64,000 nt of DNA from the NCBI GenBank assembly GCA_038741355.1, contig JAVYLC010000002.1, forward strand, positions 8,738 through 72,737, given 5' to 3'. The DNA is from Nitrososphaerota archaeon. Lineage in GTDB: Archaea; Thermoproteota; Nitrososphaeria_A; Caldarchaeales; Calditenuaceae. This document shows positions 44,506 to 59,147 of this stretch, piece after piece (the first letter of the stretch is position 1; each line of letters starts with the position of its first letter). The notes below the pieces were generated by a model. That model worked only from the letters and a program-made list of their open reading frames with translations, had not been told where the DNA came from and searched no databases. The position numbers and the translations under genes were made by a program.

Positions 44506-45107
44506 TAACATTGGCTCTGTTAACTTAAGGCTTTTGGTCTAGGGCTGTGGTTGTTTGGTCATGTTTGTTGGGCAGAGGACGGCTTTACCCGTGGTCCTCT
44601 ACGGGCTTTACCTCGTAGCCCTAGGCCTAGGCTTCGGGAGTGCAGCTATGGCTCTTAAACCTTTCGTAGACAGGAGTCATGTGGCTGTCTGGAAGTGGGT
44701 TCAGAGGCTTCTAGGATTCAGGAGGATCTTCGGGGCTAGGTGCAGGGTATCCCTATCCTCTTGGATGAGACGGCTGTCATGGTTAAAGGCCTCCTAGCAT
44801 GGGTGTGGGTTGCATATGAGCCTTTCAGCAAAAGAACCCTGGTATATTGGAGCATGCGCTAGGCTTGGTCTAACCCATCACAGATACAGGTTTGGGGATT
44901 GGCTCTTCCAAGCAATTGAGAGGGCTGTACAGATGCTCAAGGACAGGACGGAAAACTTCGACGACTACTTCCCATGCAGAAAGAAAGCATGCATTCTAGG
45001 GCATGTATGGAGCTGGCTGAACCTATTCCACATATTCAACCAGCCAGAGACGCTACATCTGATGAAGACCATAACAGGGGTGATAGAGATGGCTTAAGTT
45101 AACAGAG
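44506..45107 (+). mobile_element. degenerate IS6-family insertion sequence, copy 1
   Basis: Imperfect terminal inverted repeats: ggctctgttaacttaagg at 44508-44525 and cttaagttaacagagcc at 45090-45106. Flanked by TTAACATT at 44498-44505 and 45111-45118. Confidence 0.6.
44555..45097 (+). pseudogene. IS6-family transposase, frameshifted (two ORF pieces)
   Basis: The pieces 44555-44797 and 44810-45097 align with the intact neighbouring transposase (FVDRSHVAVWKWVQR versus FRVSHQSVRGWFLR). This is the IS6 HTH signature VS/DHSTIyRWVQk. Confidence 0.6.
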
Positions 45108-45118
45108 CCCTTAACATT

Positions 45119-45768
45119 GGGACTGTCAACTTAAGGCCACCCATGACCTTATCCACTTCTCTGATACCTTAGGCCTGTATGTTGGGGAGCATGTGTTGAA
45201 CTGTTTTATTCTTCTCTTGAGCTTGCTGAACCAAGACTCTATCGCGTTCCTCCTGCCGAATGTCTCTACCCTCCTCCTAAAGCCCAGAATCTTCATGGGC
45301 CATCGGTACCATGGAGCCCTATCCGTGTAGACGGTAGGGTTATTAGCGCACCTATCCCTAACCACCTCAAGGAACCTTATACACTCGGCTATCCCCCTAC
45401 CCCTAGATACCTGGACTGCCATCACCTCCCTAGCAGCCCATAGATAGGCCCTCCTGACGAGATTACGGATTACTATCGGCCCACGCCTACGCCTATCTAC
45501 AAGTGAGAAGGCCTCACCAGCCCTAAGGAACCAACCCCTAACAGACTGATGGCTCACCCTGAATCCTAGCTCTCCTAAGACCTCTGCAACCCCTCTAAGA
45601 CTGAGCCCCCTCCACATACATCCTGACAGCAAGCCCCCTAACCCATGAAGGATAACGCATACGAGGAAAGACACTTCTATCACCAAAGAAACCCATAAGA
45701 CGGCCTAGGCCGACCCCAACTCTATCCACCCCCAACTAATGGGAAGGCCCAGACCATAGACCTTAAGT
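45119..45768 (-). mobile_element. IS6-family insertion sequence, copy 2 (intact)
   Basis: Perfect 18-bp terminal inverted repeats: GGGACTGTCAACTTAAGG at 45119-45136 and CCTTAAGTTGACAGTCCC at 45751-45768. An 8-bp direct repeat TTAACATT flanks both sides, which is the TSD length typical of IS6. Confidence 0.7.
45126..45686 (-). CDS. IS6-family DDE transposase (short form, 186 aa)
   Basis: HTH motif LGFRVSHQSVRGWFLRAGE. TDRAPWY. C-terminal RRNAIESWFSKLKRR resembles the IS6 N.IE..H..IKRR catalytic E/K region. Confidence 0.65.
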   Translation of the reverse strand: MVIEVSFLVCVILHGLGGLLSGCMWRGLSLRGVAEVLGELGFRVSHQSVRGWFLRAGEAFSLVDRRRRGPIVIRNLVRRAYLWAAREVMAVQVSRGRGIAECIRFLEVVRDRCANNPTVYTDRAPWYRWPMKILGFRRRVETFGRRNAIESWFSKLKRRIKQFNTCSPTYRPKVSEKWIRSWVALS

Positions 45769-45827
45769 TGACAGTCCCTTAACATTTGAAGAAAAGCTTA
45801 AATCATAATGCAGAGGGATAGTTAAGT

Positions 45828-46163
45828 ATGGCTGACAAACCTATAAAGAGGCTGTTCTCATGGCTTTTACTAAGCACGAGGGGTGGACCTACACGTCTTC
45901 TAATACTTTTACTTCTCCGGAAAGGGTCAGCCAACGCTAATCAGATAGCGAATTCGCTTCATCTCCACTATAAAACTGTTCAATATCACTTGGAGGTTTT
46001 ATTGGAGAATAAGCTAGTCGAAGCTGATGACGTGAAATATGACGTAAAATATAGGTTATCCCCGCTCGTCCTTGCAAACATGGATGTTTTCGAGTCATTA
46101 ATAGATGAGATTTTCTCACATAGAGAAGAGAAGGTGAGTATAGTGTGGGACCTCTCTGGATAA
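45828..46163 (+). CDS. winged helix-turn-helix transcriptional regulator (ArsR-like)
   Basis: 111 aa. NQIANSLHLHYKTVQYHLEVLLENKLV is an HTH recognition-helix pattern. Confidence 0.5.
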   Translation: MADKPIKRLFSWLLLSTRGGPTRLLILLLLRKGSANANQIANSLHLHYKTVQYHLEVLLENKLVEADDVKYDVKYRLSPLVLANMDVFESLIDEIFSHREEKVSIVWDLSG

Positions 46164-46429
46164 CTAATATTGTAGTATCTATCATGATTGTTTTAGGTCT
46201 TTTATACTCGCTAAGAAACTATCTAATAACGCGAAGGCTTGCCAGAACCAAATTTACAAACGCTCTTGTCGCATTAACGGCGATTTTCTTACTCCAAAAC
46301 GTTTACGCTGCATACATGTTCTACGTGCTCTCTTGGAGCTATGATGTGGAGATAGCTTATCCTCTTCTAATGCTAAATCTTCTCGGCCTAGCTGGCTTCA
46401 GCATATTCGTATATCTTTCACACGTATAA
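46145..46429 (+). CDS. small membrane protein (3 TM)
   Basis: Hydrophobic 94-aa ORF. Overlaps the regulator gene by 19 bp. Confidence 0.3.
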   Translation: MGPLWITNIVVSIMIVLGLLYSLRNYLITRRLARTKFTNALVALTAIFLLQNVYAAYMFYVLSWSYDVEIAYPLLMLNLLGLAGFSIFVYLSHV

Positions 46430-46790
46430 AGCCAGTATTTGACAGAAACATTACAAAACTCGGGCCAGTATGGCGGCTCATCACTAATTTTCAAAGACGC
46501 AGGAACAATTAGGGTGAGACCTACATAGAGAGGATGGGGTTTATAGGTGTGATGGAGAGTGGGGAATGTATTCGTCTGTCCTTGGACCTCCTAATTGGAA
46601 GCTTTCGTTTATATGTGTCGCAGTGTCGATAAGACTTCGCAGGCACTATCGTAATAGATCAGCTAGCACGTATGCTCACTACAGCCCGGCCCACTACATC
46701 TCAAGCCAAGGATACGCTGTATGTCATACATTTTTAAGGTTTTGAAGATTTGGGGGAAAGATTAACTTTAGGTCTGAAGTTTTATCTGAG

Positions 46791-47942
46791 ATGTTGAATT
46801 ACTTAAAGAAGCGTGAAGTGTTTATCTCTGTTCTACTTCAGCTCGCTCTAGCATTCTTCTTCGCTCATGGATATGATTTCCGTGTAAACTATCTGGCTGG
46901 AAGAAATATTGTTTTAGGTTTGTCTCCTTACCAGGGCGGATATTTAGAGGGGCCGTTGGCTGTAGGGTATGGCCCGTATGTGCAGGGTTTGGGTGAAACT
47001 CCTTTGTGGGCCCTTTACGCAGGACTAGCGTACATTGCATCAGCAGGCAACTTATTCCTCTTTAACTTGATTCTAAAGATACCTATCATCATTGCGAATG
47101 TAGCCCTCAGCTTTCTTACAATGAAAAAAGGTGGCGACAGTTTCTTCTTCCTCTACAATCCATACCTTCTCTTAGTCTCTGCAGTATGGGGAAAACCTGA
47201 TAATGTGGCAGTATTGCTCGCAGTAGCATCAATTACCATATTGCATAGATACTATGGCTCTTTGTCGGTGGCTGTATCGGTGATGATCAAGCCGCTGGCT
47301 CTTGTAATGGCGCCATCATTCATACTGGCTTGGTGGAAAGAGAAGGAAAAAATATTCATCGCTTTTGTAGCGTTGGTTCTGATGTTTTTTACACCTTTCG
47401 TCTTATTGAACTGGAGGTTGGAGACTGTCGTCTATGGATTTCCTAACTGGTTTAGATCAGTTGGTGGGATATCTCCGTTTGATTTTGTAGAAGCAGTTTA
47501 CGGGACATCAACCGTACCCACGTGGCTTGAGCCTATATCATATCTTTCGGCGGTCTCTCTAGCGGTTATGGTTATGTTGGCGATTAAGCGCCCACCGACG
47601 AGTATTGATGGTATATTCCGTCTAGGTCTTGTCTCTGCATCTCTTTTCTTTAGCCTTCGCCCATGGGTGTCGGAGCAAAACCTTCTCATCATTTTGTCGC
47701 TTTTTATCATTGTCTGCGGCAGACTGCCTTCCCGGCTGCTTTGGATAATTCCTTTGATATTCGCTGGTCTTAATCTATCGATACCACAACAGCTATATCT
47801 TTTATATCCCTCAATAATTGAGGATCTTATTGCTTTAAATCATCCTATCAGGTACTGGCTTAAGTTCGTAGTGTCGGTAGCCTGGGTTATTGTTCTATGG
47901 ACGGTGCTGGTTAAAAAGTGTCTGTGGAAGTGGTGGATTTAA
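46791..47942 (+). CDS. polytopic membrane protein, possible GT-C-type glycosyltransferase (DUF2029/PMT-like)
   Basis: 383 aa with ~10 TM segments. An acidic first loop (HGYDF) and W-rich periplasmic loops are present. No definitive motif was found. Confidence 0.35.
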   Translation: MLNYLKKREVFISVLLQLALAFFFAHGYDFRVNYLAGRNIVLGLSPYQGGYLEGPLAVGYGPYVQGLGETPLWALYAGLAYIASAGNLFLFNLILKIPIIIANVALSFLTMKKGGDSFFFLYNPYLLLVSAVWGKPDNVAVLLAVASITILHRYYGSLSVAVSVMIKPLALVMAPSFILAWWKEKEKIFIAFVALVLMFFTPFVLLNWRLETVVYGFPNWFRSVGGISPFDFVEAVYGTSTVPTWLEPISYLSAVSLAVMVMLAIKRPPTSIDGIFRLGLVSASLFFSLRPWVSEQNLLIILSLFIIVCGRLPSRLLWIIPLIFAGLNLSIPQQLYLLYPSIIEDLIALNHPIRYWLKFVVSVAWVIVLWTVLVKKCLWKWWI

Positions 47943-48595
47943 AGATAGTCGTTAGAGGATTAGCGGCTGTACATATTTTATGGGGGCTATCCCTTCTACT
48001 AGAGCCTACTAGGTATGTTTCTAAACCTATCATACCTGCTTTATTCGCGTCTATACATTTTATAATCTTCCTCCTACTGTTGACTCATGAGAAGTACGGA
48101 GCTGTTTTGGGGTCTGTTTTTCTAACCTACTATTGGTTTTTTGTTAAACCTATCGCGCCGATAGCTGAGCCTCAAACAGTTGGGATACTTAGCATCACAC
48201 TATCCATTCTAACACCATATGCCCCAAAACTGTCGCCAGATAAACATGGAACAATTCAGGATGCTCTACTGAGACTTGGCTTGGCCTATCCCTTTATTGA
48301 GTGGGGGTTAGATGCTTTCCGTAACCCTCTTCATTTCAAATCATATCTTTCTGGAAATGTTATAACATCTTTTCTTATACCGACAGGTCTCCTCGACCTG
48401 GCTGTATTATGTCTTGGTTTATTTGAAGTTTCTCTATCGCTTCTAATTTTGACAGGTTTTAAGAGGCGTGTAGTCTCGTTCCTGACATTCTCTGTATTGA
48501 TTGTTTTTTCCTTAGTGGCCGGCTATCCACTCGCGCTACCTCAGAACATAGCTCTCATGGGCGTTGCATATATTTGGCTTAAGCCATCTTCTTGA
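47918..48595 (+). CDS. membrane protein (DoxX-like, 5-6 TM)
   Basis: 225-aa hydrophobic ORF. Overlaps the upstream gene by 25 bp. Confidence 0.35.
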   Translation: MSVEVVDLKIVVRGLAAVHILWGLSLLLEPTRYVSKPIIPALFASIHFIIFLLLLTHEKYGAVLGSVFLTYYWFFVKPIAPIAEPQTVGILSITLSILTPYAPKLSPDKHGTIQDALLRLGLAYPFIEWGLDAFRNPLHFKSYLSGNVITSFLIPTGLLDLAVLCLGLFEVSLSLLILTGFKRRVVSFLTFSVLIVFSLVAGYPLALPQNIALMGVAYIWLKPSS

Positions 48596-49958
48596 ACTTA
48601 TGATCTGTGTAGAATTCCCATGGCTTCAGCAATATATAAAATGGTCCAATCTTTTTCCTCAGCTTGGCTTGGGTCACAGCTTTCCACATGCCATACTTGA
48701 GTTTCTCTATGCTGAAGTCGTGTTTAAAGAGTAGGCGATGGTCATAGCCGTGAAGGGGTTTCTCCCATTCCTCTACAAGCATCTTATCTTTTACCATTTC
48801 ATAAAGTTTGGTTCCAGGAAGCGGGTAAGGTACTGTCATGGAGAAATAGTCAAGGGGGAGGCTTGACGCCATTTTTATTGTTTTTAGCATTGTCTCGTTT
48901 GTCTCACCAGGATATCCGAGTATGAAAAACGCGCCAACTTTTATGCCGGCCTTAACACCCGTATAAACAGCTTTCTTAGACTGCTCAACTGTCAGTCTTT
49001 TATTCATGAGTTGAAGCGTCCTATCATCGCCTGCCTCGAGTCCGAAAATTATTTTATGGCATCCTGCGCGTTTCATGGCTTTAGCGACCTCTGCGTCGAA
49101 CAGATCAGCCCTAGCCAGACACTCCCATAGGATGTCCAGCTTCCTATCCATTATTTCGCGACATAGCCGTAGAACATGTCTTTTATTGGCTATAAACAGC
49201 TCATCAGCAAACCATATCCTTTCATAGCCAAACTTATACCGTATCTCCTCCATCTCGTCGACTATGTTTTCAGGGCTTCTTGTACGATAAACGCGGCCGT
49301 AGTCTGGCCGCCAGCAAAAACCGCATGAAAAAGGGCAGCCCCGCGAGGCTATCATCGAGGTCATGGTGTATCCGTAGTTTCGGAGATAGTACCGCTTATA
49401 GTGATCGTTATCATATAGATCCCTAGCCGGGAAGGGTAGGTCGTCTAAGTTTTTTATGAGAGGCCTTTGCCCCGTGAAGAAGTGACTGTCACTGTTGGCT
49501 GGAACAGCTTGGGTGGTCTTTTTTAAAAATTGCCCAGAAATGTGCAGGCCTTTAACACGCTGGAATTTCATGCTGTTATCTAATTCGGTCATTAGCTCAA
49601 GCATTGCTTCCTCACCTTCACCCTGAACAGCGATATCGAATAGGCCGAGGAATTTTGCCGGATATGCTGAAGGCATGGGTCCACCGGCGACAAGTAGCTC
49701 TACCTTCTCCCTTAGCGCAGAGGCTATATCCAATGCCGGCTTCACCATCGAAAGCATGCTGTAGATGCCTACTACCCTTGACTGCGCCGCTTCTCTTATA
49801 ACGTCTTCTATTTTTTTGAATGTACAGTCAATGATTTTGACTTTGTATCCATGCATTCTAATATACGATGCAATATATCCTATGCCCAGCGGTGGAAACT
49901 TAAAAGATCTAGACCTACCGTCATCGAAGTATGGAAAGATGAGCGCTAAGTCATTCAA
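48579..49958 (-). CDS. B12-binding domain radical SAM protein (class B rSAM)
   Basis: N-terminal cobalamin-binding Rossmann-like region (LGIGYIASYIRMHGYKVKIID). The radical-SAM motif CPFSCGFC follows. 459 aa. Confidence 0.8.
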   Translation of the reverse strand: MNDLALIFPYFDDGRSRSFKFPPLGIGYIASYIRMHGYKVKIIDCTFKKIEDVIREAAQSRVVGIYSMLSMVKPALDIASALREKVELLVAGGPMPSAYPAKFLGLFDIAVQGEGEEAMLELMTELDNSMKFQRVKGLHISGQFLKKTTQAVPANSDSHFFTGQRPLIKNLDDLPFPARDLYDNDHYKRYYLRNYGYTMTSMIASRGCPFSCGFCWRPDYGRVYRTRSPENIVDEMEEIRYKFGYERIWFADELFIANKRHVLRLCREIMDRKLDILWECLARADLFDAEVAKAMKRAGCHKIIFGLEAGDDRTLQLMNKRLTVEQSKKAVYTGVKAGIKVGAFFILGYPGETNETMLKTIKMASSLPLDYFSMTVPYPLPGTKLYEMVKDKMLVEEWEKPLHGYDHRLLFKHDFSIEKLKYGMWKAVTQAKLRKKIGPFYILLKPWEFYTDHKFKKMA

Positions 49959-50730
49959 GCTGTTTAAACACCAGCCGGTAACGAAGTGTGTCCTTCTCTT
50001 CCGGAAATTCTAAGCTTACGCCGGCCCAGTCGAGGCGGTTACCAAGCACCTCCCTGCCGGCAAAGGACTTAACATCATCTGGCCTATCAATAATCATCGA
50101 AAGTTTTAGAGAAGGTGAAACTAGTTCGACAACACCGTTTTCAAGTTTCATCCAAGGCGGCAGGTTCTTCTTTACGCCCTCAATTCTCATGTATGTGAAC
50201 AACCTCCCTGAGAGCTCATTTGCGACAAGAACGCGCATATTCTTGGGTGTATCTCGCCTAGCAGTAACTTCTACCTCGGATCCATTTATTCTGTACATCA
50301 GATGTACTGATCCATATGCCTTTAGTTGTATGTAGCGGCTTTTTACACCTAAGAGTGTACGTCCAGTCATTAACATGAAGTATAGTGGCCTAAGCGCCTT
50401 GCTCTGTAAGTAGAGAGGTGACAACAGTCTCTTTAGCTTCCTATAGAGTTTATCGATACACGCTTTTGAGAGGTATTTTACTGATACGCCGTCTAGCTGG
50501 ATTTTTCTGGCTATGAATCCATTATTAATTTGACGTGTCTCAGCCGTGAGTGGGAAAAGGGTCCTCCTACCTAATATTCCCACAACACCTCCTAACCCTA
50601 TCCCCTCGCCAATCAAAGCTAAGCCATCTAAAACTGGCACAAGACCACGTACAACACCCTCGATCTCATGTGAAGGGGTAGAAGGTGTGTTAAATGTAAA
50701 GAAAAGTCTCTCGACTAGTCTACTCATCAA
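49951..50730 (-). CDS. hypothetical protein, 8-bp overlap with the B12-rSAM gene (probable partner)
   Basis: 259-aa ORF immediately upstream of the rSAM gene on the same strand. No recognisable motifs. Confidence 0.4.
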   Translation of the reverse strand: MMSRLVERLFFTFNTPSTPSHEIEGVVRGLVPVLDGLALIGEGIGLGGVVGILGRRTLFPLTAETRQINNGFIARKIQLDGVSVKYLSKACIDKLYRKLKRLLSPLYLQSKALRPLYFMLMTGRTLLGVKSRYIQLKAYGSVHLMYRINGSEVEVTARRDTPKNMRVLVANELSGRLFTYMRIEGVKKNLPPWMKLENGVVELVSPSLKLSMIIDRPDDVKSFAGREVLGNRLDWAGVSLEFPEEKDTLRYRLVFKQLE

Positions 50731-50881
50731 GCAGCGGCTCCTGTCTTTAGTAGATAATGTTTTTCCGAAATTTCACGATGTTAAAAATGTTTAAACATCG
50801 TTTAAATGCAGATGCCCTCATTTTCTATTACTCCTAATTTGGGAAAACTCTTTTGTCCTCCCTTCCTCCATTACAGCGTTA

Positions 50882-52804
50882 ATGATGTTTTTACAGTCTA
50901 TGATAACTTTAGCTTTCATGGCTATTTCAGTCATTCTCCCCCTCTATATCGTGGCATATGTTCATCTACTCATTCTATCGCGACGATATACACAGCCATC
51001 AAGAACGACACTTCAGCGATACCCTAAAGTCTCTGTCCATCTACCAATCTTTAATGAGAAACATGTTGTCGGGAGGCTGATAGAAGCTGTGTGCAACTTA
51101 ATCTATCCATCAGACAGGCTTGAGATAATAATCATAGACGACTCTGTAGATGAAACATCATCTATATGTGAAGAACTAGTCAGAAAGTATAGAGCCAAAG
51201 GGATAAACATTGTTCACATCAAGCGTAATGATAGGAAAGGGTTCAAGGCAGGCGCCCTCCAGTATGCTCTCCAAAACTCAAGCGGCGAGTTTATAGCAAT
51301 TTTTGACGCAGATTTTATCCCGCAACCAAGCTTTCTAATACAAATCCTCCCCTACTTCACAGATAGCCGGATTGGGGTAGTTCAAGCAAGGTGGGGGCAT
51401 CTAAACAGATACTACTCCCCTTTAACAGCCGCACAAGCGCTCAGCCTAGACCTCCATTTCACCATTGAGCAGAGAGGGCGTTCATCTAGATACTTTTTGA
51501 ATTTCAACGGCACGGCTGGTGTTTGGAGAAGAGCATGCATAGAGGACGCTGGCGGATGGATAGACTCTCTAGCCGAGGACCTTGACCTGAGTTATAGGGC
51601 CCAGCTAAAAGGTTGGCGTATTGTTTACATCGATGATTTAGTCGTTCCAGCCGAGGTTCCCGTGCAGATGAAAGCGGTGCGCAGACAGCAATATAGATGG
51701 GCTTACGGATCAATTCAAACAGCTATAAGATACATGTCTCAAATTCTCCTATCACATCTTCCCAGCCTCGTCAAGATACATGCCATAATTCATCTTACTA
51801 GGCATTTACCTCAGTTACTCTTAACTGTCCAAGTTTTAATGATTCCTTTAGTTGTAAGTTCGGGGGTTCAAGCTCGCTTTGACATAATGCTTGGATGGGT
51901 GGTGTTGTATCCATTGTTATTAACATCATCACTTCTTCTCACAGCTGAAAACCATCTTAAAAAAACATACAGCAGCCTGCTAAAATTTGTTAAAGATGTG
52001 CTACTGATGTTTTTATGGGGGATGGGCATGTCAGTTAACAACTCATTGGCTGTCATCCATGCTTTTTTGAAAAAAGATTTAGAGTTTGAGAGGACTCCGA
52101 AGTTTGGCATAGTGGGTAAAAAAGGCAACTGGCGATGGAGTAGCTATGCTCTATTGAATGAACCCAACATCGTCTTTGACCTCGCAATGGGAGTATACAG
52201 CCTTTACGCTTCTCTATACTGTTTCTATACGAGGGCCCTTTACTTCCTACCTCTAACCACATTATATTCTAGCTCCCTATTCTACACTGTTTTCGCCTCA
52301 ATAATCCAGACAGCACGTCGAGGTAGGCAAACACACCGATGGCCACGCACTGATGTCCTTGCTATCATTTTAGCGGCGGTGTTTGTAGTAATTTCTTTCC
52401 ATTCATTTGCGATGATCGTGTATCCATTAGAGACGGCTATCGCAGCTATTGAAAAAGCCTCAACTTCAGTCGATAACGTTTACATGGTTAAACAACTTGA
52501 TGATGCACTTGCCCACCTCCCATCGCAAGGTAACCCTGTATGGGTGCTGCCGACTGCAAACACGGACTATCAGCTCATTAGATACGATTTGCAATCCATT
52601 AAAATAAGGCTCTTAAATGTATACAAAAACGATTACTTCACATATCACTCTGTCACAGAGGATGCTAGATACGCCTTAGAAGTAGTAGTCGGCCAGTTGC
52701 GACGAATACAACCGTTTGCATGGCTTAGTGTCTGGAACCTATCAGCATCACTTATTGTAGTATATTCAGTGTTTTATTTCGTGGTGAAAGAAAGTCATGC
52801 CTAG
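50882..52804 (+). CDS. processive family-2 glycosyltransferase (cellulose/chitin/hyaluronan-synthase-like) with C-terminal membrane extension
   Basis: GT-A motifs in order: IIIIDDSVDET, FDADF, and RRQQYRWAYG (Q-x-x-R-W). TM helices flank the catalytic domain. A ~250-aa C-terminal extension carries additional TM helices. Confidence 0.8.
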   Translation: MMFLQSMITLAFMAISVILPLYIVAYVHLLILSRRYTQPSRTTLQRYPKVSVHLPIFNEKHVVGRLIEAVCNLIYPSDRLEIIIIDDSVDETSSICEELVRKYRAKGINIVHIKRNDRKGFKAGALQYALQNSSGEFIAIFDADFIPQPSFLIQILPYFTDSRIGVVQARWGHLNRYYSPLTAAQALSLDLHFTIEQRGRSSRYFLNFNGTAGVWRRACIEDAGGWIDSLAEDLDLSYRAQLKGWRIVYIDDLVVPAEVPVQMKAVRRQQYRWAYGSIQTAIRYMSQILLSHLPSLVKIHAIIHLTRHLPQLLLTVQVLMIPLVVSSGVQARFDIMLGWVVLYPLLLTSSLLLTAENHLKKTYSSLLKFVKDVLLMFLWGMGMSVNNSLAVIHAFLKKDLEFERTPKFGIVGKKGNWRWSSYALLNEPNIVFDLAMGVYSLYASLYCFYTRALYFLPLTTLYSSSLFYTVFASIIQTARRGRQTHRWPRTDVLAIILAAVFVVISFHSFAMIVYPLETAIAAIEKASTSVDNVYMVKQLDDALAHLPSQGNPVWVLPTANTDYQLIRYDLQSIKIRLLNVYKNDYFTYHSVTEDARYALEVVVGQLRRIQPFAWLSVWNLSASLIVVYSVFYFVVKESHA

Positions 52805-53288
52805 GAAACTACTCTATGTATCTGTATATTTGTTTGTAGGTGTGGCCCTCATATCTGCTGCGTACATTCTAGACGTATACCCACTTGAGCAGGCGGCCGG
52901 CTTCCTCAGCAGAGCGCAGTCGGCTGGATACGCAGAAGACATGGCTGCATACGTTGCTCAAGCCTTGCACTTCATACCCCGTGAAGGGAATCCCGTCTGG
53001 CTATTCCCCACACAGAGAACTGACTTCGCCCTGATAAGAAACGACATTTTTGCCATAATTGACAGATTGAATAGCCTAACTGATATTCCACGCCAGAGTG
53101 CTGCATACGCACAGACTCTAAACGATATAAGGGGAAAAATTGCTGTATTAACCAGCCAGCTCTACGAAGCAATGCCCTACATGTTTTTTAAACCAATCAA
53201 TATAATAGCCGCAATAGCCTATCTGCTTACACCCATTATCATACAAACAAAAATTAACAGACAAAAAAGTCACGCTAAAAAGGCTTAA
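52797..53288 (+). CDS. membrane protein paralogous to the C-terminal module of the upstream GT2 synthase
   Basis: VYPLEQAAGFL...REGNPVWLFPTQRTDFALIRNDIFAIIDRL aligns with the GT2 C-terminus VYPLETAIAAI...SQGNPVWVLPTANTDYQLIRYDLQSIKIRL. Its coordinates overlap the GT2 gene by 8 bp. Confidence 0.5.
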   Translation: MPRKLLYVSVYLFVGVALISAAYILDVYPLEQAAGFLSRAQSAGYAEDMAAYVAQALHFIPREGNPVWLFPTQRTDFALIRNDIFAIIDRLNSLTDIPRQSAAYAQTLNDIRGKIAVLTSQLYEAMPYMFFKPINIIAAIAYLLTPIIIQTKINRQKSHAKKA

Positions 53289-53393
53289 GTAAGAGTTGCC
53301 AATTACTGATCATAAATGGTTTTTAAAGCATTTTCCCGACACTTCCATTTATTGGTAGTTTCAGAATTTTTTTAAGCCTCAAAGCAGTAACCA

Positions 53394-56300
53394 TTGATGA
53401 ATTTGATTGATGGAAGATTTCTGAAGGAGCGAGGATACGATGTTTATAATGGAAACGAACTAGTAGTAAAAGGCGCACTAGAGGCCGGCATACCAATAGC
53501 ATCTGGCTATCCGGGTTCTCCAGTTGCTGAGTTTTTCACATTTACTGAGAAATACGCAGATTGGCTTGCAGAAAATGGATTTTATTGGGAAGCTGCAAAA
53601 AACGAGGCCGAAGGAGCAGGTAGGCTCAATGGCGCAAGAATTATCAACAAAGATGCAATGGTTGTCATGAAGAGTGTCGGATTAAACGTCGCTACTGACC
53701 CCTTGGAAATTTCTAATTATCAAGCAGCTGCAACTATTGGATGGGGTGGAGTTGTTGTAGTTGGGGATGATCCGCATGCTTCTAGCACACAGATTGCTTC
53801 CAGCTCAAGACTTCTGCTAAAGAAGCTTAGGATACCAATTTTAGAGCCTAGTACTCCGCAAGAAGTGAAAGATTACATTGGAGAAGCATTGGAATTATCA
53901 CGGTCATCGCAGTTAATAGCCGGATATATCATCCAATCATGGCAAGCTGATGGAATAGGGTCGGTGGAACTCTATAAAAACAAATATCCGACTAGAGTGA
54001 AAGAAAGGATTGATATAAGTAAAATAAATGTGGAGAAAGAAGTAAGCCTTCCTCCGGTTACTGCGGAGTTAGAAAAAGATATTGTTATAAGGAGGTTTCC
54101 GGCCGCGGTAAGTCATGCAAGAAGAAGGAATCTGAATCGAATACTTTATTCGGATGGTGGAAAAAGGAAGATTGGATTCGTTACCTCTGGTCTGGCTTAT
54201 AACTATCTCGAACAAGCATTGTATGAGTTGGGAATGCAGGGAAGACTTCCTATTCTAAAACTGGGACTGGTTTATCCACTTGATGAGAATTTAGTGAAAG
54301 ATTTTGCAAGACAAGTTGAAAACATTTATGTCGTAGAGGAAAAAGAGCCTTTCATAGAGTCTGAGATTTCTCTTATTCTGAGAGACGCTTACCAAAACAA
54401 AGAAATCGAATATGTTAACGTTTGGGGCAAAAGATTCCCTAACGACAGGGAGGGCTTCCCTGAACACGGCGGTCTGAGTCCCACTATTGTGATTAAGATA
54501 ATAGGTGAAGAGCTACTCAATGCTTTAGATGATTTGTCTTATGAAGAGAAAAGTAGAATTAATAAGGTCCTCGAACTAGTCGAGGACGCTAACAAATATT
54601 CCTTACAGCCTCCAAAAAGGATTCCTACCTATTGTGCAGGCTGCCCACACAGGGGGACTAGTAGTGTTCTTAAATATTTGAGGAGGTCTCCTGGAAATGA
54701 TTTCCTCACAGTACCAGACATCGGGTGCTATTCAATGTCGGCTTTTACTCCGTGGAAGGAGGCCCACGCTTTCAATGCAATGGGTCGTGCAGGAGCCTCT
54801 GCATATTCCATGGGGGTAGTAGAAAACAAGAAAGTTCTTCTCGTTGGTGATGGAACTTTCGTCCACGGCGGCTATGTGTCTGTACAGGAAGCTATAGACA
54901 AAAATCTAGACGCCATCATAGTTATACTTTATAATCACTATGTGGCCATGACCGGGCATCAAAAAGTTCAGATAAAGGATGCAAAAGATATAGAGGAAAA
55001 AGTAAAAGCGATGGCGAGAGGAAAGGATGTCTATGTAAGAATAATAGATCCAGATGATAGGAAAGGCTACATTGAAGAAATGAAAAAACTGATGAATAGA
55101 AAAGGTACAGCTGTACTGATCTCGGATAAGGAATGCGGTATAACTAGGGAAAGGAGAAGGAGGGCTGAGAGGGCGGGAAAACCTAAGACGGAATTCATAA
55201 ACATAACTAACGAAGTATGTGAGAACTGCAGGGAGTGCACCATGAACACAGGCTGCCCAGGGTTAACTCTTGTAAACACGCCGTATGGCGAAAAAGTTGC
55301 GATAGACATGTCAATATGCACAGAGGATGAGTACTGTGCGAAAATAGAAGCCTGCCCCTCATTCGAAAGAGTTAGGGTGCACTACGCAGGAGGGAAACCA
55401 AAGGAGAGATTGCTTGATTCAGAACTGGATGGTGTGCCAGAACCTGATAATAAGGTAGAGTTTAACGATACTTACTCTATTTACACCGCAGCTGTTGGCG
55501 GTATGGGTGGTGGGCTGCTCTCCGTGATTTTGGCTCGAGCTGGAGCGAAAAGCGGCTATAATATAGGTAGATGGATAGGACACGATAAAAAAGGATTAGC
55601 CATAAGAAATGGCGGTGTTTACAGTCATATAATATTTTCTAAAAACGATGCACAATTATCTCCTGTTATTGTAGCCGGCAAAGCTGATCTAATAATTGGT
55701 CTTGACAAGCTTGAAGGCTCAAAGGGGTTAAAGTATGCTAACGCTAGTACAAAATTTGTTTCAAATCAAACAGAGCTACCTACCATACCTATGCTCATAG
55801 GAGAGGAGGAATATCCACACGATATTGACGAAAAAATTAAAAATAGGTTGACATCATATAATAATTATGGGCTGCCGATTTCGGAGCTTGCAGAGTTTTA
55901 CTTAGGAAACAAACTATTTTCCAACATAGTCATGCTGGGAGTCTGCTATCAGCTCGGCCTATTACCATTGGACTCTAAAAATATAGAGGATGCGATAATT
56001 GAATCAGTCAAAGCAGAGCGGGAGAAAAATCTAAGGGCTTTCAAGTTTGGAAGGAAGCTTGTGTATGACAGTACTTTTTTGGATAAGCTAATAAACAATC
56101 CTCATTTCCTAAGAATATACCATGAACACATGTGGTTTTCAAGAAGATCTCTGGAAGAGGTACTCTATGAGAAGAAGGACTATCTGAAAGATTACTATTT
56201 GATAAAGTCTAGGGGGTTGAAAATTGCTAATATGTATGAAAAACTAATAAAAGATTTTAAGAATGATAAAAAGTTGGATGAAGATGCCTTGAAACATTTT

Positions 56301-57041
56301 GCTATAAGGGTTTATGACTTGATAAAATGGGGCGGCATAGACTATGCTAAAAAATATGTGGAGTTGGTCTCCAAGGTTTATTATAAGGATAAAGAGGAAA
56401 AAGGATTTGCGGCTACCAAAGCTGTTATAGAAAATTTATACAAGGTAATGGCTATAAAGGATGAGTTATGGGTTTCCGAGCTACTATTAAGCAGAGAGAA
56501 GCTGGAGAGAGACAAGATTAAGTACAATGTACATGAGGAGCGAGGTGATAGTATAGAGTATATTCATTTAACAAGGCCGCAGATAGTTATAAGTGTTGGG
56601 AAACCTTTGGGAAAAATCATAAAATTCTTGAAAAAGAACTTGCCAAATTTGGCAAACAAAAAGATTGAGCTAGACGTTGAAGATGGCATGCTCAAAGTCA
56701 AATTAGTTATGAATACCAAAAATTGGCAGCTCCGAATCATCAGGAGGATGAAGTTTCTCCGGAAATATTTGTTTAGACATAAGAAGGAAGAAGAATTCAG
56801 AGACTGGTATGTTGAAAGGGTCATAAGTTACTTCCTCGAAAATTCTGAACAAAATTATGAGCTTGCTGTAGAGTTTCTTAAGATGCCGCTTAGTTTTAAT
56901 GTTCCAGCACATGCTAAGGGCATTACTGGATTCAGGGAAGTTATATATCCTAAAATGGACTTAGCGAGAAAAACTTTTGAGAACCTAACTTCTACCTCGA
57001 ACCTTGTTTCCGAGTTAGAGCCTGTCGGCAAAAAGCAATGA
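53394..57041 (+). CDS. fused indolepyruvate:ferredoxin oxidoreductase-family protein (2-oxoacid:Fd oxidoreductase, bacterial long form)
   Basis: 1215 aa. N-terminal IorA signature GNELVVKGALEAG...GYPGSP. TPP/Fe-S region CAGCPHRG and CENCRECTMNTGCPG. IorB/POR-gamma-like AVGGMGGGLLS. ~350-aa K-rich C-terminal extension. Low GC. Confidence 0.8.
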   Translation: MMNLIDGRFLKERGYDVYNGNELVVKGALEAGIPIASGYPGSPVAEFFTFTEKYADWLAENGFYWEAAKNEAEGAGRLNGARIINKDAMVVMKSVGLNVATDPLEISNYQAAATIGWGGVVVVGDDPHASSTQIASSSRLLLKKLRIPILEPSTPQEVKDYIGEALELSRSSQLIAGYIIQSWQADGIGSVELYKNKYPTRVKERIDISKINVEKEVSLPPVTAELEKDIVIRRFPAAVSHARRRNLNRILYSDGGKRKIGFVTSGLAYNYLEQALYELGMQGRLPILKLGLVYPLDENLVKDFARQVENIYVVEEKEPFIESEISLILRDAYQNKEIEYVNVWGKRFPNDREGFPEHGGLSPTIVIKIIGEELLNALDDLSYEEKSRINKVLELVEDANKYSLQPPKRIPTYCAGCPHRGTSSVLKYLRRSPGNDFLTVPDIGCYSMSAFTPWKEAHAFNAMGRAGASAYSMGVVENKKVLLVGDGTFVHGGYVSVQEAIDKNLDAIIVILYNHYVAMTGHQKVQIKDAKDIEEKVKAMARGKDVYVRIIDPDDRKGYIEEMKKLMNRKGTAVLISDKECGITRERRRRAERAGKPKTEFINITNEVCENCRECTMNTGCPGLTLVNTPYGEKVAIDMSICTEDEYCAKIEACPSFERVRVHYAGGKPKERLLDSELDGVPEPDNKVEFNDTYSIYTAAVGGMGGGLLSVILARAGAKSGYNIGRWIGHDKKGLAIRNGGVYSHIIFSKNDAQLSPVIVAGKADLIIGLDKLEGSKGLKYANASTKFVSNQTELPTIPMLIGEEEYPHDIDEKIKNRLTSYNNYGLPISELAEFYLGNKLFSNIVMLGVCYQLGLLPLDSKNIEDAIIESVKAEREKNLRAFKFGRKLVYDSTFLDKLINNPHFLRIYHEHMWFSRRSLEEVLYEKKDYLKDYYLIKSRGLKIANMYEKLIKDFKNDKKLDEDALKHFAIRVYDLIKWGGIDYAKKYVELVSKVYYKDKEEKGFAATKAVIENLYKVMAIKDELWVSELLLSREKLERDKIKYNVHEERGDSIEYIHLTRPQIVISVGKPLGKIIKFLKKNLPNLANKKIELDVEDGMLKVKLVMNTKNWQLRIIRRMKFLRKYLFRHKKEEEFRDWYVERVISYFLENSEQNYELAVEFLKMPLSFNVPAHAKGITGFREVIYPKMDLARKTFENLTSTSNLVSELEPVGKKQ

Positions 57042-57165
57042 AGTGACAATTATCCTCTCCTCGCTAACTGAAAGATGGTAGACCTCTAGCAAGCCCAGTG
57101 CGCTAAACCAATTTTCTCAACTCTTTCACCACACATATTAACCCTCTTGGAATCGTTTGGGGTGG

Positions 57166-57193
57166 GGGATTGGCATCCCCCACCCGACAAGGC
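57166..57193. repeat. GC-rich perfect hairpin (11-bp stem, 4-nt loop)
   Basis: ggggtgggggat tggc atcccccacccg. Lies 125 bp downstream of the IOR stop, at the island boundary. Confidence 0.4.
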
Positions 57194-57364
57194 CGGGCTG
57201 CCGAGAAGTAGGGTGAGAAGATGTCCACATCTTCTTCCTAGAGAACTGAGGATAGAACTGTACTATGAGGTTGGAGGGCTGAGGAGGCAGGGACTATCAT
57301 ACTGAAGAATCATAGGCTCTGTGAGGGAGAGATATGGTGTTGTATTACAAAAATCCCACATTAG

Positions 57365-58237
57365 CTACTGGGTCAGAGGAATACACAGCCCATACAACTG
57401 CATAGAATACCTTCAATAAAGTTTCTAAAACCTTCTGAGGAGCCTGCGTATGTTGTAGGTGTAGTTGCTGGAGAAGGTTATGTCCTGCGGCGGCGACGGC
57501 TTCGAAAATCATACCACGAAGTGTATGTAGGGTTGAAAGTTAGGGATAGGGAGTTTGCTGAGGAGTTCTCAAGATGTCTTGCAGTAGTCTTGAAGAGAGA
57601 ACCGCCTAAACCTGCTGATCCTAGGTCGTCGGGAGGACGATTCGTCGTCGAACTAGAAAGTAAGGTCCTCTACGAGCTGCTGAAGAAGCCTTTAAGGCTG
57701 GAGAAGATCAAAAAGTTTATAGAACACTCTAACCGATGTAAATCGGCCTTCCTGAGAGGCTTCTTCGACAGCGAAGGAAGCGTAGATGAGGACGGAGAAG
57801 TAACAGTCTATAACACCGACTTAGCCCTGCTTAGATACGTCAAACAACTTCTCTCTTCTCTAGGGATAGAGACTACAGGACCACATCTCTACTCAAGGCG
57901 TGGAACGGCCTTCAGAGACCCGAGGACGGGAAAAACATATAGGACTAAGAAGGACGCATATGGGTTATATGTTACCGCTGGCTCTCGGCTGATGTTCTAC
58001 AATCGCGTAGGATTCACGGTGAGAAGAAAACAGCAGAGGCTGGAGAACTACCTCACAAGGACTGGACGGCTAAAACCCCCAGCCAACCCACCCCCCATCT
58101 CTTCCCAACCACATCACGATCACGATAATAATGTACAAGGTACGGGCCCGCTGGGACTTGAACCCAGGACCTTCGGCTCCGGAGGCCGACGTACCAGAGA
58201 TATTACATGCATAATATCTTCTCTGTGTCCATGCTGA
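57365..58237 (+). CDS. double-motif LAGLIDADG homing-endonuclease-like ORF; no canonical start codon upstream of motif 1 (possibly decayed)
   Basis: Motif 1 PAYVVGVVAGEGY at 57443-57481. Motif 2 SAFLRGFFDSEGS at ~57737-57775. Their ~99-aa spacing resembles I-DmoI-type enzymes. The frame is open from 57365, but the first ATG/GTG/TTG is the GTG at 57521. The 3' end runs antisense through the tRNA. Confidence 0.55.
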   Translation, partial: LLGQRNTQPIQLHRIPSIKFLKPSEEPAYVVGVVAGEGYVLRRRRLRKSYHEVYVGLKVRDREFAEEFSRCLAVVLKREPPKPADPRSSGGRFVVELESKVLYELLKKPLRLEKIKKFIEHSNRCKSAFLRGFFDSEGSVDEDGEVTVYNTDLALLRYVKQLLSSLGIETTGPHLYSRRGTAFRDPRTGKTYRTKKDAYGLYVTAGSRLMFYNRVGFTVRRKQQRLENYLTRTGRLKPPANPPPISSQPHHDHDNNVQGTGPLGLEPRTFGSGGRRTRDITCIISSLCPC

Positions 58238-58248
58238 GCTACGGGCCC
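58143..58248 (-). tRNA. tRNA-Arg (anticodon CCG) with a ~30-nt intron at a non-canonical position (D-arm/anticodon-stem junction)
   Basis: The minus-strand reading is GGGCCCG-UA-GCUC...[intron with palindrome AGAUAUUA-UGCAUG-UAAUAUCU]...UCGGC-CUCCGGA-GCCGA-AGGUC-CUGGG-UUCAAGU-CCCAG-CGGGCCC-G. It shows a perfect 7-bp acceptor stem, a 5-bp anticodon stem, U33, and a canonical T-arm. The D-stem closure is imperfect, so the exact intron boundaries are uncertain. Confidence 0.7.
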
Positions 58249-58289
58249 AACGAAAACAACAATTTCCCATATATATGTTTAAGAGGAAA

Positions 58290-58445
58290 ATAGGGGGAGA
58301 GTTTGGCTGGAGGCCCGTCATCTGACAACGTCTGGGAAGCCGGATGAAAACCGTGCATTGGCTGCGGAATCGCCGTAAAGCGTTCGACGCCCTATTGCCC
58401 GGCCTTCATCCGGTTTTTCCCCACTGTCAGGCCGGGCCTCCAGCT
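58290..58445. other. ~150-nt block of nested inverted repeats (candidate structured RNA or terminator region)
   Basis: Outer 12-bp pair gctggaggcccg / cgggcctccagc. Middle pair ctgaca / tgtcag. Inner 9-13-bp pair gaagccggatgaa / ttcatccggtttt. The block sits immediately upstream of the tRNA on the minus strand. Confidence 0.3.
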
Positions 58446-58657
58446 CTGACGTAATTCTTGATTTTCTTCAGCAGTTCTCGGGCTTCTCTGGCTTTAACGC
58501 TGTTCATCCTGTAGTAGCTGATTGCAATGGAATGAACAGCCTGTTTCAGTCGATGGTTGTATTTGCCGATGTTTGGTTTATAAAGTCCGACGTAGCACAA
58601 AATCCTCCTCAGCTTCGCCGTAAAGTTCACGTGTAGAAGAATGTCTGCGAAAGCCAC
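58427..58657 (-). CDS. hypothetical small basic protein (uncertain)
   Basis: 76-aa ORF. No motif recognised. The region is structure-rich and could be non-coding. Confidence 0.2.
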   Translation of the reverse strand: MAFADILLHVNFTAKLRRILCYVGLYKPNIGKYNHRLKQAVHSIAISYYRMNSVKAREARELLKKIKNYVRAGGPA

Positions 58658-58826
58658 CTTACCGTACAGACAGTCATCCGATAAGCCAAGAGGTTCGCAT
58701 AAAGGCCTGTATATGCTTATTGTGTTCGTCGCGATGTTTATTATCTGCCGTGCCAGCCTATATTTTTCTCTACGAACGGTGTTGATGGATTCCAGGATTC
58801 TCCCCGCTGTTTCATCATCTTGAGCA

Positions 58827-59066
58827 GTGCTTGTTTCGCATAGTACTTCACCATTATCTTCATCAGCTCTATTTGGTCAGTGGATACTTCGACGAAGATT
58901 CACTTATAAAGATTATGAAGAGCCTCCGTCTATCCCTTCAGGCGTTCAGCCACAGTATGACAGGGGACAGTCATTCTGTAGCGTGTGTCATGAAACATTC
59001 GAGAACAGGGATAGATGTCCCCATTGTAACAGAGTATTAAGAAAAAAGAAATACAAACAACCCTAA
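58827..59066 (+). CDS. hypothetical small zinc-ribbon protein (uncertain)
   Basis: C-terminal CSVCHETFENRDRCPHC (CxxC-x10-CxxC). An alternative overlapping frame 58831-59040 also exists. Confidence 0.25.
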   Translation: MLVSHSTSPLSSSALFGQWILRRRFTYKDYEEPPSIPSGVQPQYDRGQSFCSVCHETFENRDRCPHCNRVLRKKKYKQP

Positions 59067-59147
59067 CAGACCAAGATAATAGTCGATATTATCTTAGGCC
59101 AGCGCCCTATCCATTCTAGGCCACGGGCCCGCCAACCCCATCCTAAG

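Follow-up and report, generated by a model that had tools for sequence, protein, structure and literature searches.

A fused, DUF6537-containing indolepyruvate ferredoxin oxidoreductase-like protein in a Nitrososphaerota genome and its probable acquisition from another archaeon

Results

A single gene encodes an IOR-like protein with a DUF6537 extension

Within a 64,000-nucleotide stretch of a Nitrososphaerota genome (assembly GCA_038741355.1, contig JAVYLC010000002.1, positions 8,738 to 72,737 of the forward strand; hereafter the window), one gene encodes a 1214-residue protein that carries the domains of an indolepyruvate ferredoxin oxidoreductase (IOR), together with a C-terminal DUF6537 extension, in a single chain. 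Taken as a whole, our analyses make it fairly probable that this is an IOR-like, DUF6537-type 2-oxoacid:ferredoxin oxidoreductase (OFOR) that oxidises 2-oxoacids derived from amino acids, and that its gene was gained laterally from a low-GC archaeal donor and has been inherited vertically since. The protein is already deposited and its family already annotated, relatives being named routinely as 'indolepyruvate ferredoxin oxidoreductase'; this is no new kind of system.

The open reading frame (ORF) runs from 53394 to 57041 on the + strand, as confirmed by the ORF list and the translation. A TTG at 53394 directly precedes an ATG at 53397; the ATG is the likely start codon, with the TTG one codon upstream as the alternative. 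Read from the ATG, the 1214-aa product is identical to the deposited protein P0001 from end to end (100% identity, 100% coverage), and the record is named 'MAG: DUF6537 domain-containing protein [Nitrososphaerota archaeon]' (MAG, metagenome-assembled genome). An earlier reading of this DNA from the sequence alone (the sequence-only reading) had left open whether the gene is truly one ORF. It is: three independent assemblies contain the same uninterrupted frame at 85-88% identity, and its length of ~1200 aa is shared by more than 100 distant homologues, which together exclude a frameshift artefact. The wider idea that a frameshift or a chimeric assembly fused separate genes, or placed a foreign gene on this contig, draws on the origin of the contig from a MAG and on the sharp departure of the GC content of the gene from that of its flanks. 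We give it practically no credence, since in addition to the homologues of equal length the same ORF occupies the same locus in independent NCBI and JGI assemblies, including a 1.55-Mb contig, and homology to the related locus L001 is unbroken through the promoter, the gene and both junctions.

The gene and its domains are as follows, with residues counted from the ATG at 53397 here and throughout.

53397 to 57041, + strand: complete gene for the single-chain IOR-like 2-oxoacid:ferredoxin oxidoreductase, 1214 aa, stop codon at 57039-57041 (ORF and translation, P0001, Pfam, NCBIfam, AlphaFold2 (AF2) model).
53397 to 54596, + strand: residues 1-400, IorA-like Pyr domain (domain I; GYPGSP 37-42, E70) and transketolase-C-like domain II (TIGR03336, 1yd7 profile match).
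54597 to 55196, + strand: residues 401-600, domain predicted to bind thiamine pyrophosphate (TPP) (PP domain; C413, C416, C444, C580; G484-D485-G486...N513) (PF02775, profile alignment).
55197 to 55391, + strand: residues 601-665, ferredoxin-like insert (alignments).
55464 to 56066, + strand: residues 690-890, IorB/POR-gamma domain III with a G701-G-M-G704 loop (PF01558; IorB models at 66-96 bits).
56067 to 57038, + strand: residues 891-1214, C-terminal extension with DUF6537 (PF20169, AF2).

The motifs singled out by the sequence-only reading were all found where it had placed them, namely GYPGSP at 37-42, CAGCPHRG at 413-420, a ferredoxin-like Cys cluster at 608-653 and AVGGMGGGLL at 699-708. 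The fused layout that it had proposed, in which IorA-like, ferredoxin-like and IorB-like parts are followed by a C-terminal extension, is likewise borne out by domain matches. Pfam identified TPP_enzyme_C (PF02775) at 442-575 (E 1.3e-9), POR (PF01558) at 702-887 (E 6.4e-20) and DUF6537 (PF20169) at 969-1166 (69.1 bits against a gathering threshold of 27). The top NCBIfam model was NF009589, the long 'IOR family protein', which is colinear over residues 36-1033, followed by IOR_alpha over 20-651 and by IorB models over ~693-890. When the protein was divided, the N-terminal third alone matched TIGR03336 IOR_alpha best, with 184 bits, the middle third matched the long IOR family and IorB models best, and the C-terminal third matched the NF006179/PRK08312 'IorB family protein' model best.

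Cofactor motifs are intact and invariant in 52 family members

Searched as a single sequence against PDB sequences, the whole protein gave nothing at E<=0.01, and the family profile alone yielded (weak) OFOR matches. The profile matched the alpha subunit 1yd7 (Pyrococcus 2-ketoacid:ferredoxin oxidoreductase) over residues 12-172 (E 1.3e-12), and aligned with the pyruvate:ferredoxin oxidoreductase (PFOR) beta chain 9bt4_C and the OOR-beta chain 5c4i_C over the GC and GDG...N motifs. We scored conservation on an alignment of 52 family members, in all of which E70, C413, C416, C444, D485, N513 and C580 are invariant. By comparison with known enzymes, E70 is the presumptive TPP-activating Glu of domain I; C413, C416, C444 and C580 match the standard OFOR set and are candidate ligands of the proximal [4Fe-4S] cluster; and G484-D485-G486...N513 would form the diphosphate/Mg motif of the TPP site. 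Its cofactor motifs being intact and invariant, the protein very probably functions as an OFOR.

The ferredoxin-like insert contains the pattern C608-x2-C611-x2-C614-x5-C620-P, followed by C641-x2-D644-x2-C647-x5-C653-P. Its seven Cys and one Asp are kept in 52 of 52 sequences and probably bind Fe-S clusters, the Asp standing in the place of the eighth Cys of an ordinary 2x[4Fe-4S] ferredoxin. Its position differs between forms of the enzyme: the Asp falls in motif 2 (C-x2-D-x2-C) in fused proteins, but in motif 1 (CTGDHAC) in the two-gene form composed of IorA and a long IorB, whose motif 2 is a normal CxxCxxC (compared in L090, 2965-6653, and L091, 2863-6568). In the ferredoxin of Pyrococcus furiosus, a C-x2-D-x2-C motif goes together with an Asp-ligated or [3Fe-4S]-convertible cluster, and this analogy suggests that the D644 cluster may be of the same type. 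The whole protein has 12 Cys, 11 of which are at conserved positions.

Domain III is presumed, from its resemblance to IorB and POR-gamma, to be the CoA-binding domain. Beyond it, the sequence-only reading had described a Lys-rich extension of ~350 aa; the extension exists (~325 aa, with DUF6537) and is basic, but its richness in Lys follows from base composition. Lys makes up 13.9% of residues 891-1214, and the same stretch of the L001 orthologue has 9.7% Lys and 10.0% Arg; the basic character of the C-terminus is therefore conserved, and the excess of Lys is a by-product of low GC. Residues ~1070-1100 form an insert restricted to the clade that comprises the window protein and its Conexivisphaerales homologues.

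An AF2 model of residues 1-1195 had a mean predicted local distance difference test score (pLDDT) of 81.9 and a predicted template-modelling score (pTM) of 0.83. Its top Foldseek matches in the PDB were the PFOR entries 7plm, 2c3y, 1b0p and 6cin (E 6e-17 to 1e-15), and the searches of PDB sequences and structures turned up no IOR among the solved structures. Modelled separately, residues 895-1214 gave a pLDDT of 84.8 and a pTM of 0.83 and appear mostly helical with a small beta-sheet subdomain; Foldseek returned no significant match for this model in the PDB (best E 0.03, TM 0.13). A phmmer search with the C-terminal extension against 1.84 billion representative proteins gave 218 matches at E<=1e-3. 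The best 150 of these 218 have lengths of ~1200, ~800 and ~500-660 aa, with shorter pieces in addition, which we read, by length alone, as fused, split and long-IorB forms together with fragments. As far as protein lengths indicate, DUF6537 thus occurs in IOR-like proteins of all three forms.

Proposed reaction and likely substrates

The likely function is the TPP- and Fe-S-dependent oxidative decarboxylation of amino-acid-derived 2-oxoacids to acyl-CoA. The steps can be proposed from the conserved motifs and established OFOR chemistry. A 2-oxoacid arising from the transamination of an aromatic or branched-chain amino acid would add to TPP bound where domain I, with E70, faces the GDG...N motif of the PP domain, and CO2 would be released. 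Two electrons would then pass, singly, to the proximal [4Fe-4S] cluster (C413, C416, C444, C580) and onward through the two clusters of the ferredoxin-like insert, one of which has three Cys and Asp644 as candidate ligands, to an external ferredoxin as the final acceptor. CoA bound on the IorB-like domain III would accept the acyl group to yield acyl-CoA.

The genomic context of relatives bears on the substrate. In at least three Conexivisphaerales species, an ADP-forming acyl-CoA synthetase (ACS) is encoded 1.5-3 kb from the split homologue described below, with an AsnC/Lrp regulator nearby in one of those species and a carboxyltransferase in two of the three (L004 and L100/L101). This arrangement fits a predicted role in amino-acid or peptide catabolism with ATP formed by substrate-level phosphorylation, the classical archaeal route leading from 2-oxoacid to acyl-CoA and on to acid and ATP (PMC5817080). 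Furthermore, a family member from Cupriavidus clusters with HMG-CoA lyase, isovaleryl-CoA dehydrogenase and a carboxyltransferase, that is, with leucine catabolism, which suggests a branched-chain (leucine) role for at least some of the family.

OFOR reactions are reversible, and an anabolic direction of IOR has been proposed for some methanogens. The enzyme could therefore act mainly in reverse, carboxylating aryl- or acyl-CoA to 2-oxoacids for amino-acid synthesis, or could use a 2-oxoacid unrelated to amino acids. Apart from reversibility, this is favoured by the setting of the gene in the bacterial sister clade, where in 27 loci (L020-L086) it was not found in catabolic operons and often has same-strand housekeeping neighbours: NAD kinase in 13/27, and RecN, Glu/Gln-tRNA synthetase (GltX) and shikimate dehydrogenase in 6/27 each. 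Nor does a catabolic partner adjoin the gene in the window or in Bathyarchaeia, at whose loci a GtrA-like gene alone recurs. The closest homologues outside the group of the window protein, however, lie consistently near an ADP-forming ACS and an AsnC/Lrp regulator, a catabolic pairing, and the Cupriavidus member sits in its leucine-degradation cluster; we consequently regard a mainly reductive role, or a substrate of another kind, as rather unlikely.

The closest relatives are archaeal

Most similar are two proteins from Nitrososphaerota MAGs, at 88% and 85% identity, followed by Conexivisphaerales proteins of 790-836 aa that align at ~60% over two thirds of the query. There follow dozens of full-length, fused Bathyarchaeia proteins of ~1202 aa at 43-44%, and then one Woesearchaeota protein together with bacterial ones at 37-40% (Poribacteria, Latescibacterota, Omnitrophota, Chlamydiota, Verrucomicrobiota and Elusimicrobiota). 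The classical long bacterial IOR-family proteins encoded on plasmids of Rhodococcus, Cupriavidus, Rhizobium and Pseudosulfitobacter are at 25-29%. No protein with a Caldarchaeales or Aigarchaeota name was found among the best 120 matches.

We then built a neighbour-joining tree (52 sequences, 1157 columns, 100 bootstraps) rooted on the bacterial form with IorA and long IorB. The window protein groups with those of L007 and L008 with 100% support, with Conexivisphaerales added at 100% and Bathyarchaeia at 90%. The sequence-only reading had asked whether the IorA core nests inside bacteria; the archaeal clade is instead the sister of the bacterial clade at 37-40% identity (90-92% bootstrap), and the PRK1303x proteins form a separate deep clade. 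By partition, the archaeal clade received 92% for residues 1-400, 78% for 401-890 and 92% for 1-890. Shared indels agree with the tree, as in the case of a 13-aa insert after CxGCPHR that is present in bacteria and Woesearchaeota and absent from the clade of the window protein and from Bathyarchaeia. When the N-terminal, middle and C-terminal thirds were taken separately, as the sequence-only reading had suggested, all partitions ranked the relatives broadly alike. Conexivisphaerales come first; Bathyarchaeia and Woesearchaeota take the next two places, which they exchange in the C-terminal third; the bacterial sister clade follows, and PRK1303x is far more distant. The protein is therefore not a chimera of pieces with different histories. 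Both outgroup clades are bacterial, which makes it plausible that the gene passed from bacteria to archaea long ago, at the root of the archaeal clade.

In Conexivisphaerales, the homologue is encoded by two genes, the first of 379-387 aa (domains I-II) and the second of 790-836 aa, which are divided between domain II and the TPP domain and not at the IorA/IorB boundary. The pair overlaps by 7 nt or is separated by 62-140 nt, depending on the species (L004, 8844-12511; L100/L101, 4721-8373; L102, 4793-8448). The split is a derived form. The 'bacterial architecture' that had been attributed to the window protein is therefore not peculiar to bacteria, as the fused full-length form is standard in many Bathyarchaeia and the Conexivisphaerales split form is archaeal as well.

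Two sequences in the tree stand apart from their labels. The Woesearchaeota sequence (L019, JACPNI010000049.1) nests among bacterial ones, reflecting either a separate bacteria-to-archaea transfer or a binning error, and the gene of a MAG labelled 'bacterium' (L021, JAJPJY010000158.1, Centralia_MAG_577) falls inside the Bathyarchaeia clade at 44% identity; the latter record is probably archaeal or mis-binned.

Composition and synteny point to lateral gain followed by vertical inheritance

The gene set of the window, including RadA, TiaS, CdvB/Snf7, CDC48, geranylgeranyl reductase, diphthamide synthase and RtcB, is archaeal, and its RtcB is nearest to those of MAGs named Ca. Calditenuis, Aigarchaeota and Ca. 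Caldarchaeum (75-84%), so that the host is probably related to Caldarchaeales. Within this setting the IOR gene has a GC content of 0.402 and a third-position GC content (GC3) of 0.383, so that the description of it as the lowest-GC gene in the window holds true among the 51 ORFs of >=150 aa. Core genes of the window have a GC of 0.530 +/- 0.021 and a GC3 of 0.602 +/- 0.046. The anomaly recurs in the two related loci: the IOR gene has a GC/GC3 of 0.40/0.38 in the window, and its orthologues have 0.43/0.44 (L001) and 0.40/0.39 (L007), against flanking and host genes at ~0.49-0.56 and ~0.54-0.65, respectively. Likewise, the relative synonymous codon usage (RSCU) of the IOR gene correlates with that of core genes at 0.26 in the window and 0.30 in L001, compared with a mean of 0.73 and a minimum of 0.40 for the core genes themselves. 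Homologues in Conexivisphaerales, Bathyarchaeia and Woesearchaeota match the GC of their hosts, and the anomaly is confined to the window, L001 and L007; since homologues elsewhere carry host GC, low GC is not intrinsic to the gene family.

In L001-L003, the IOR gene lies directly between hemA and a block of tRNA-Arg(CCG), GDPD, metallophosphoesterase (MPE) and RtcB genes, and in L001 its stop codon is ~40 nt from the 3' end of the tRNA-Arg. A blastn comparison of the window with L001 is colinear, at 82-83% nucleotide identity for the hem operon, 82.6% for IOR and 79% on the GDPD side; at the protein level, IOR is 84.9% identical and its neighbours 73-96%. Being syntenic in L001 and diverging as its neighbours do, the gene has been inherited vertically since these genomes split and stands outside the strain-specific island. 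The sequence-only reading had placed it within an island; the ~10-kb block adjoining it is indeed absent from L001, but the IOR gene is present there in synteny.

In the genomes that come next by RtcB similarity, the locus lacks the gene. L103, whose RtcB is 86% identical, has GDPD and tRNA-Arg and then unrelated genes without an IOR, and L104 (84%) keeps RtcB and MPE, again with no IOR at the locus. Both loci are rearranged and the L105 contig ends 46 nt after the tRNA-Arg, which leaves this comparison suggestive. The search through hemA yielded only two homologues, one at 53% on a contig that starts at hemA and one at 38% with different upstream synteny.

We conclude that the gene was most likely acquired laterally, beside the tRNA-Arg gene, in an ancestor shared by the window, L001 and L007 genomes, because the odd codon usage is restricted to three close genomes and because of the position at the side of a tRNA gene. 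The donor was probably an unsampled low-GC archaeon with a fused-type archaeal enzyme.

Two other histories have to be weighed against this one. The sequence-only reading favoured transfer between domains, with the fused oxidoreductase arriving directly, or recently, from a bacterium as part of an island. The likely foreign origin survives from that proposal, as GC and codon usage mark the gene as a strong outlier, and mobile-element debris does surround it (an insertion sequence (IS) element, a LAGLIDADG fragment and a disrupted tRNA gene). Moreover, bacteria dominate the wider DUF6537 family and make up both outgroup clades in the tree, and there is a precedent for IOR transfer into Nitrososphaerota in Ca. 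Nitrosocaldus islandicus, whose canonical iorAB is reported to cluster with bacterial genes (PMC5817080). The bacterial donor, on the other hand, fares badly. The best matches are archaeal down to 43% identity, with bacteria beginning at 40%; the archaeal clade is supported at 90-92% as sister to the bacterial one; the window clade and Bathyarchaeia share indels, including the lack of the 13-aa insert; and the gene is syntenic in relatives with neighbour-like divergence, the adjacent 10-kb island being the strain-specific part. A direct or recent bacterial source is thus very improbable in our view.

A stronger competitor invokes no lateral gain at all. The gene could be an old, vertically inherited one of Nitrososphaeria or Thermoproteota, lost in other Caldarchaeales, whose AT-rich codons have been kept by selection (for example, for slow translation during cofactor insertion) or by local mutational bias. 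This would sit well with an archaeal clade to which Conexivisphaerales, a second order of that class, also belong, with the conserved position and neighbour-like divergence across three genomes, and with a low GC3 that has not ameliorated despite ~18% nucleotide divergence. Set against it are the absence of the compositional anomaly wherever else the gene occurs, the different location and structure in Conexivisphaerales (split, beside carboxyltransferase and ACS genes), the lack of the gene at this locus in relatives that are nearer by RtcB, and the want of Caldarchaeales- or Aigarchaeota-named proteins among those best 120 matches. In addition, the gene abuts the 3' end of a tRNA gene, and the 3' ends of tRNA genes are classic integration sites. 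On balance we consider purely vertical descent to have perhaps one chance in a few, and continue to favour lateral gain from an archaeal donor.

The surroundings of the gene

A candidate promoter element and two insertions specific to the window flank the gene:

53367 to 53376, + strand: TTTTTTTAAG box, candidate archaeal TATA box (sequence comparison of the window, L007 and L001).
43337 to 53320, no strand: window-specific, low-GC insertion of ~10 kb between hemA and the IOR promoter (blastn against L001, Pfam, gene GC 0.42-0.45).
57045 to 59095, no strand: window-specific insertion of ~2 kb between the IOR stop codon and GDPD (blastn against L001, PF14528, tRNA tests).

The TTTTTTTAAG box lies ~25 nt 5' of the ATG and is the same in the window and L007, with L001 differing at one base (final G to A); the sequence upstream of it is not conserved. 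It resembles an archaeal TATA box; if it acts as one, the mRNA would have no leader or a very short one.

The 43337-53320 block has no counterpart in L001, which is colinear otherwise. It carries an IS element and the genes of several membrane proteins, ArsR, DoxX, a B12-binding radical SAM enzyme, a 259-aa protein without a Pfam match and a 640-aa glycosyltransferase of family 2 (GT2), and its codon usage correlates with that of the IOR gene at an RSCU r of 0.64 as against 0.32 with core genes. No direct repeats were found at its ends. Two ORFs just upstream of the IOR gene, of 640 and 163 aa, could by size pass for a canonical IorA/IorB pair; translation and Pfam identified the first as the GT2 glycosyltransferase and the second as a membrane protein. 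The C-terminal tail of the GT2 (52500-52804) and the 163-aa ORF (52797-53288) share a motif ('...GNPVWVLPTANTDYQLIRYDL...' and '...GNPVWLFPTQRTDFALIRNDI...') that has no Pfam match and whose recurrence suggests a duplicated domain.

The block also holds two small elements. One, of ~660 bp at 45119-45778, is IS-like: perfect terminal inverted repeats of 18 nt (GGGACTGTCAACTTAAGG) enclose an ORF of 186 aa that has a weak IS240-type DDE match and a host-like GC of 0.52. The other, of ~600 bp, adjoins it at 44513-45109, has inverted repeats of 17 nt (GGCTCTGTTAACTTAAG) that are likewise perfect and related to those of the first, contains no ORF of >=100 aa, and looks like a miniature inverted-repeat transposable element derived from its neighbour. 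Further away, at ~15180-16120, a low-GC patch (0.47-0.48) has no long ORF but short overlapping ones in different frames, and the translations ('WYAHFTLTKTVELVDDFETTVALDRGEVNLAVAVAIS' and 'NKRFHNTPFRRLQTIVEYKANLEGIGVEYL') resemble, by eye, pieces of an IS200/IS605-type TnpB; this is probably a decayed transposon-associated gene.

In the ~2-kb insertion downstream, the ORF at 57521-58237 (+) matches LAGLIDADG_3 (PF14528) at residues 73-120 only, and its C-terminus is spurious because it runs over a tRNA on the opposite strand. Scans of the window with ARAGORN and with Rfam at the gathering threshold called no tRNA. The segment 58143-58248 (-) nevertheless reads as a tRNA-Arg(CCG) with a hairpin insert of ~30 nt in the D-arm: the Rfam tRNA model scored it at 26.7 bits against a threshold of 29, and ARAGORN called tRNA-Arg(CCG) there after in-silico deletion of 28-36 nt. 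At 59096-59130 (-) lies an isolated 5' fragment, 35 nt long, of the tRNA-Arg(CCG) that L001 has in intron-less form at this position (13684-13761). It seems likely that the tRNA at 58143-58248 either has a non-canonical intron or is a replacement copy borne by the element. A 71% identical copy of window positions 58006-58249 is present in L007, inverted and upstream of the IOR gene, which suggests that this segment is mobile or rearranging.

Discussion

The interpretation that we favour, of an IOR-like, DUF6537-type OFOR for amino-acid-derived 2-oxoacids gained from a low-GC archaeon, has to be held against a number of observations that count against it. On the enzymatic side, all NCBIfam IOR models match below their curated cut-offs; the gene neighbourhoods of the window, the Bathyarchaeia and the bacterial sister clade contain no pathway partner; a literature search returned no paper on DUF6537 and no characterised fused IOR; and, to our knowledge, no DUF6537-type IOR has been biochemically characterised. 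On the historical side, a clean empty site, with hemA adjoining tRNA-Arg, was sought through hemA and RtcB homologues and not found, and the low GC persists through ~18% nucleotide divergence without visible amelioration, which selection on an anciently resident gene could explain equally well. The tree itself is crude, being a neighbour-joining one with a simple distance correction, a bacterial two-gene root and outgroups drawn from a bacteria-dominated plasmid collection, and the C-terminal third alone leaves the archaeal clade unresolved (15% bootstrap).

If the assignment is true, this Caldarchaeales-like archaeon would have gained a one-gene route from amino-acid-derived keto acids to acyl-CoA and reduced ferredoxin, which bears on the heterotrophic living of Nitrososphaeria that do not oxidise ammonia. 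The DUF6537-type IOR family is large and present in both domains, with no characterised member or solved structure known to us, and two features of it deserve attention: an invariant Asp in place of one cluster Cys, and a confidently predicted C-terminal domain that has no match among solved structures. One may speculate, as something of a long shot, that the clade from Nitrososphaeria and Bathyarchaeia is a functionally distinct class of OFOR, in which the unmatched C-terminal domain and an apparently Asp-ligated cluster would confer perhaps oxygen tolerance or another electron partner, fitting (micro)aerobic, haem-making heterotrophs without 2-oxoacid dehydrogenase complexes, and whose gene may move between archaea as single-gene cargo beside tRNA genes.

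Comparison with known oxidoreductase systems

Judged from sequence and model, the protein has each of the five sequence and fold hallmarks of the OFOR superfamily that were examined: a PP domain, a Pyr domain with its Glu, four proximal Cys, domain III and the overall fold. Its best structural matches are the single-chain PFORs of Desulfovibrio africanus (1B0P/2C3Y) and Moorella thermoacetica (6CIN), at E ~1e-16, which are likewise one-chain OFORs with TPP and three Fe-S clusters; they differ in sharing only 11-12% identity, in domain order and in having no DUF6537. The global TM-score against PFOR is only ~0.3 because the domain order differs.

The canonical archaeal IOR has the same domain order divided over two subunits, with domains I-II, TPP and ferredoxin-like parts in IorA (~640 aa) and domain III in IorB (~200 aa), and the same chemistry is expected of it. 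The window protein, by contrast, is one chain with an additional DUF6537 extension of ~325 aa, and has seven Cys and an Asp in the ferredoxin-like insert where canonical IorA has eight Cys. It also falls short of the canonical cut-offs: IOR_alpha (TIGR03336) scored 311 against 650.9 bits, IOR_beta (TIGR03334) 66 against 205.8, and the best IorB model 94.5 against 230, the cut-offs of the IorB models spanning 206-238 bits. The two-subunit enzyme of Pyrococcus furiosus is the described example (Mai & Adams 1994, as cited in PMC5817080).

The long bacterial single-chain IORs (NF009589/PRK13030 and NF009588/PRK13029), in which the sequence-only reading had sought the home of the protein, have the same colinear domains in ~1150-1200 aa, and the defining layout of that long fused family, with domains I-II, TPP, ferredoxin-like insert, domain III and DUF6537 in one chain, is present in the window protein. 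They also have the same four proximal-cluster Cys and the same C-x2-C-x2-C...C / C-x2-D-x2-C...CP pattern. Membership in that family does not follow, however, given the identity of 25-29% noted above and model scores below cut-off (NF009589 440.5 against 816 bits, NF009588 323.7 against 952), and the long bacterial proteins have CPHN, GGxG and Q(E/T/V)CA where the window protein has CPHR, GGMG and KECG (around C580). A further bacterial form comprises two genes, an IorA of ~716 aa and an 'IorB family protein' of ~513 aa (NF006179/PRK08312; plasmids of Sulfitobacter and Alloyangia). It has the same cofactor residues as the window protein and carries DUF6537 at the end of its long beta subunit; it differs in its division at the IorA/IorB boundary and in the placement of the Asp in motif 1 rather than motif 2, and is the most distant group in the tree.

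Closest outside the window protein's own group are the split homologues of Conexivisphaerales, which agree with it in their domains and in the clade-specific inserts of domain III and DUF6537, and are set apart by their two genes, host-like GC and neighbourhood of carboxyltransferase and ADP-forming ACS. The window protein is therefore best placed in a separate subfamily, which has no name, of the fused IOR-like enzymes with DUF6537; this subfamily consists of the archaeal clade, from Nitrososphaeria and Bathyarchaeia, and its bacterial sister clade.

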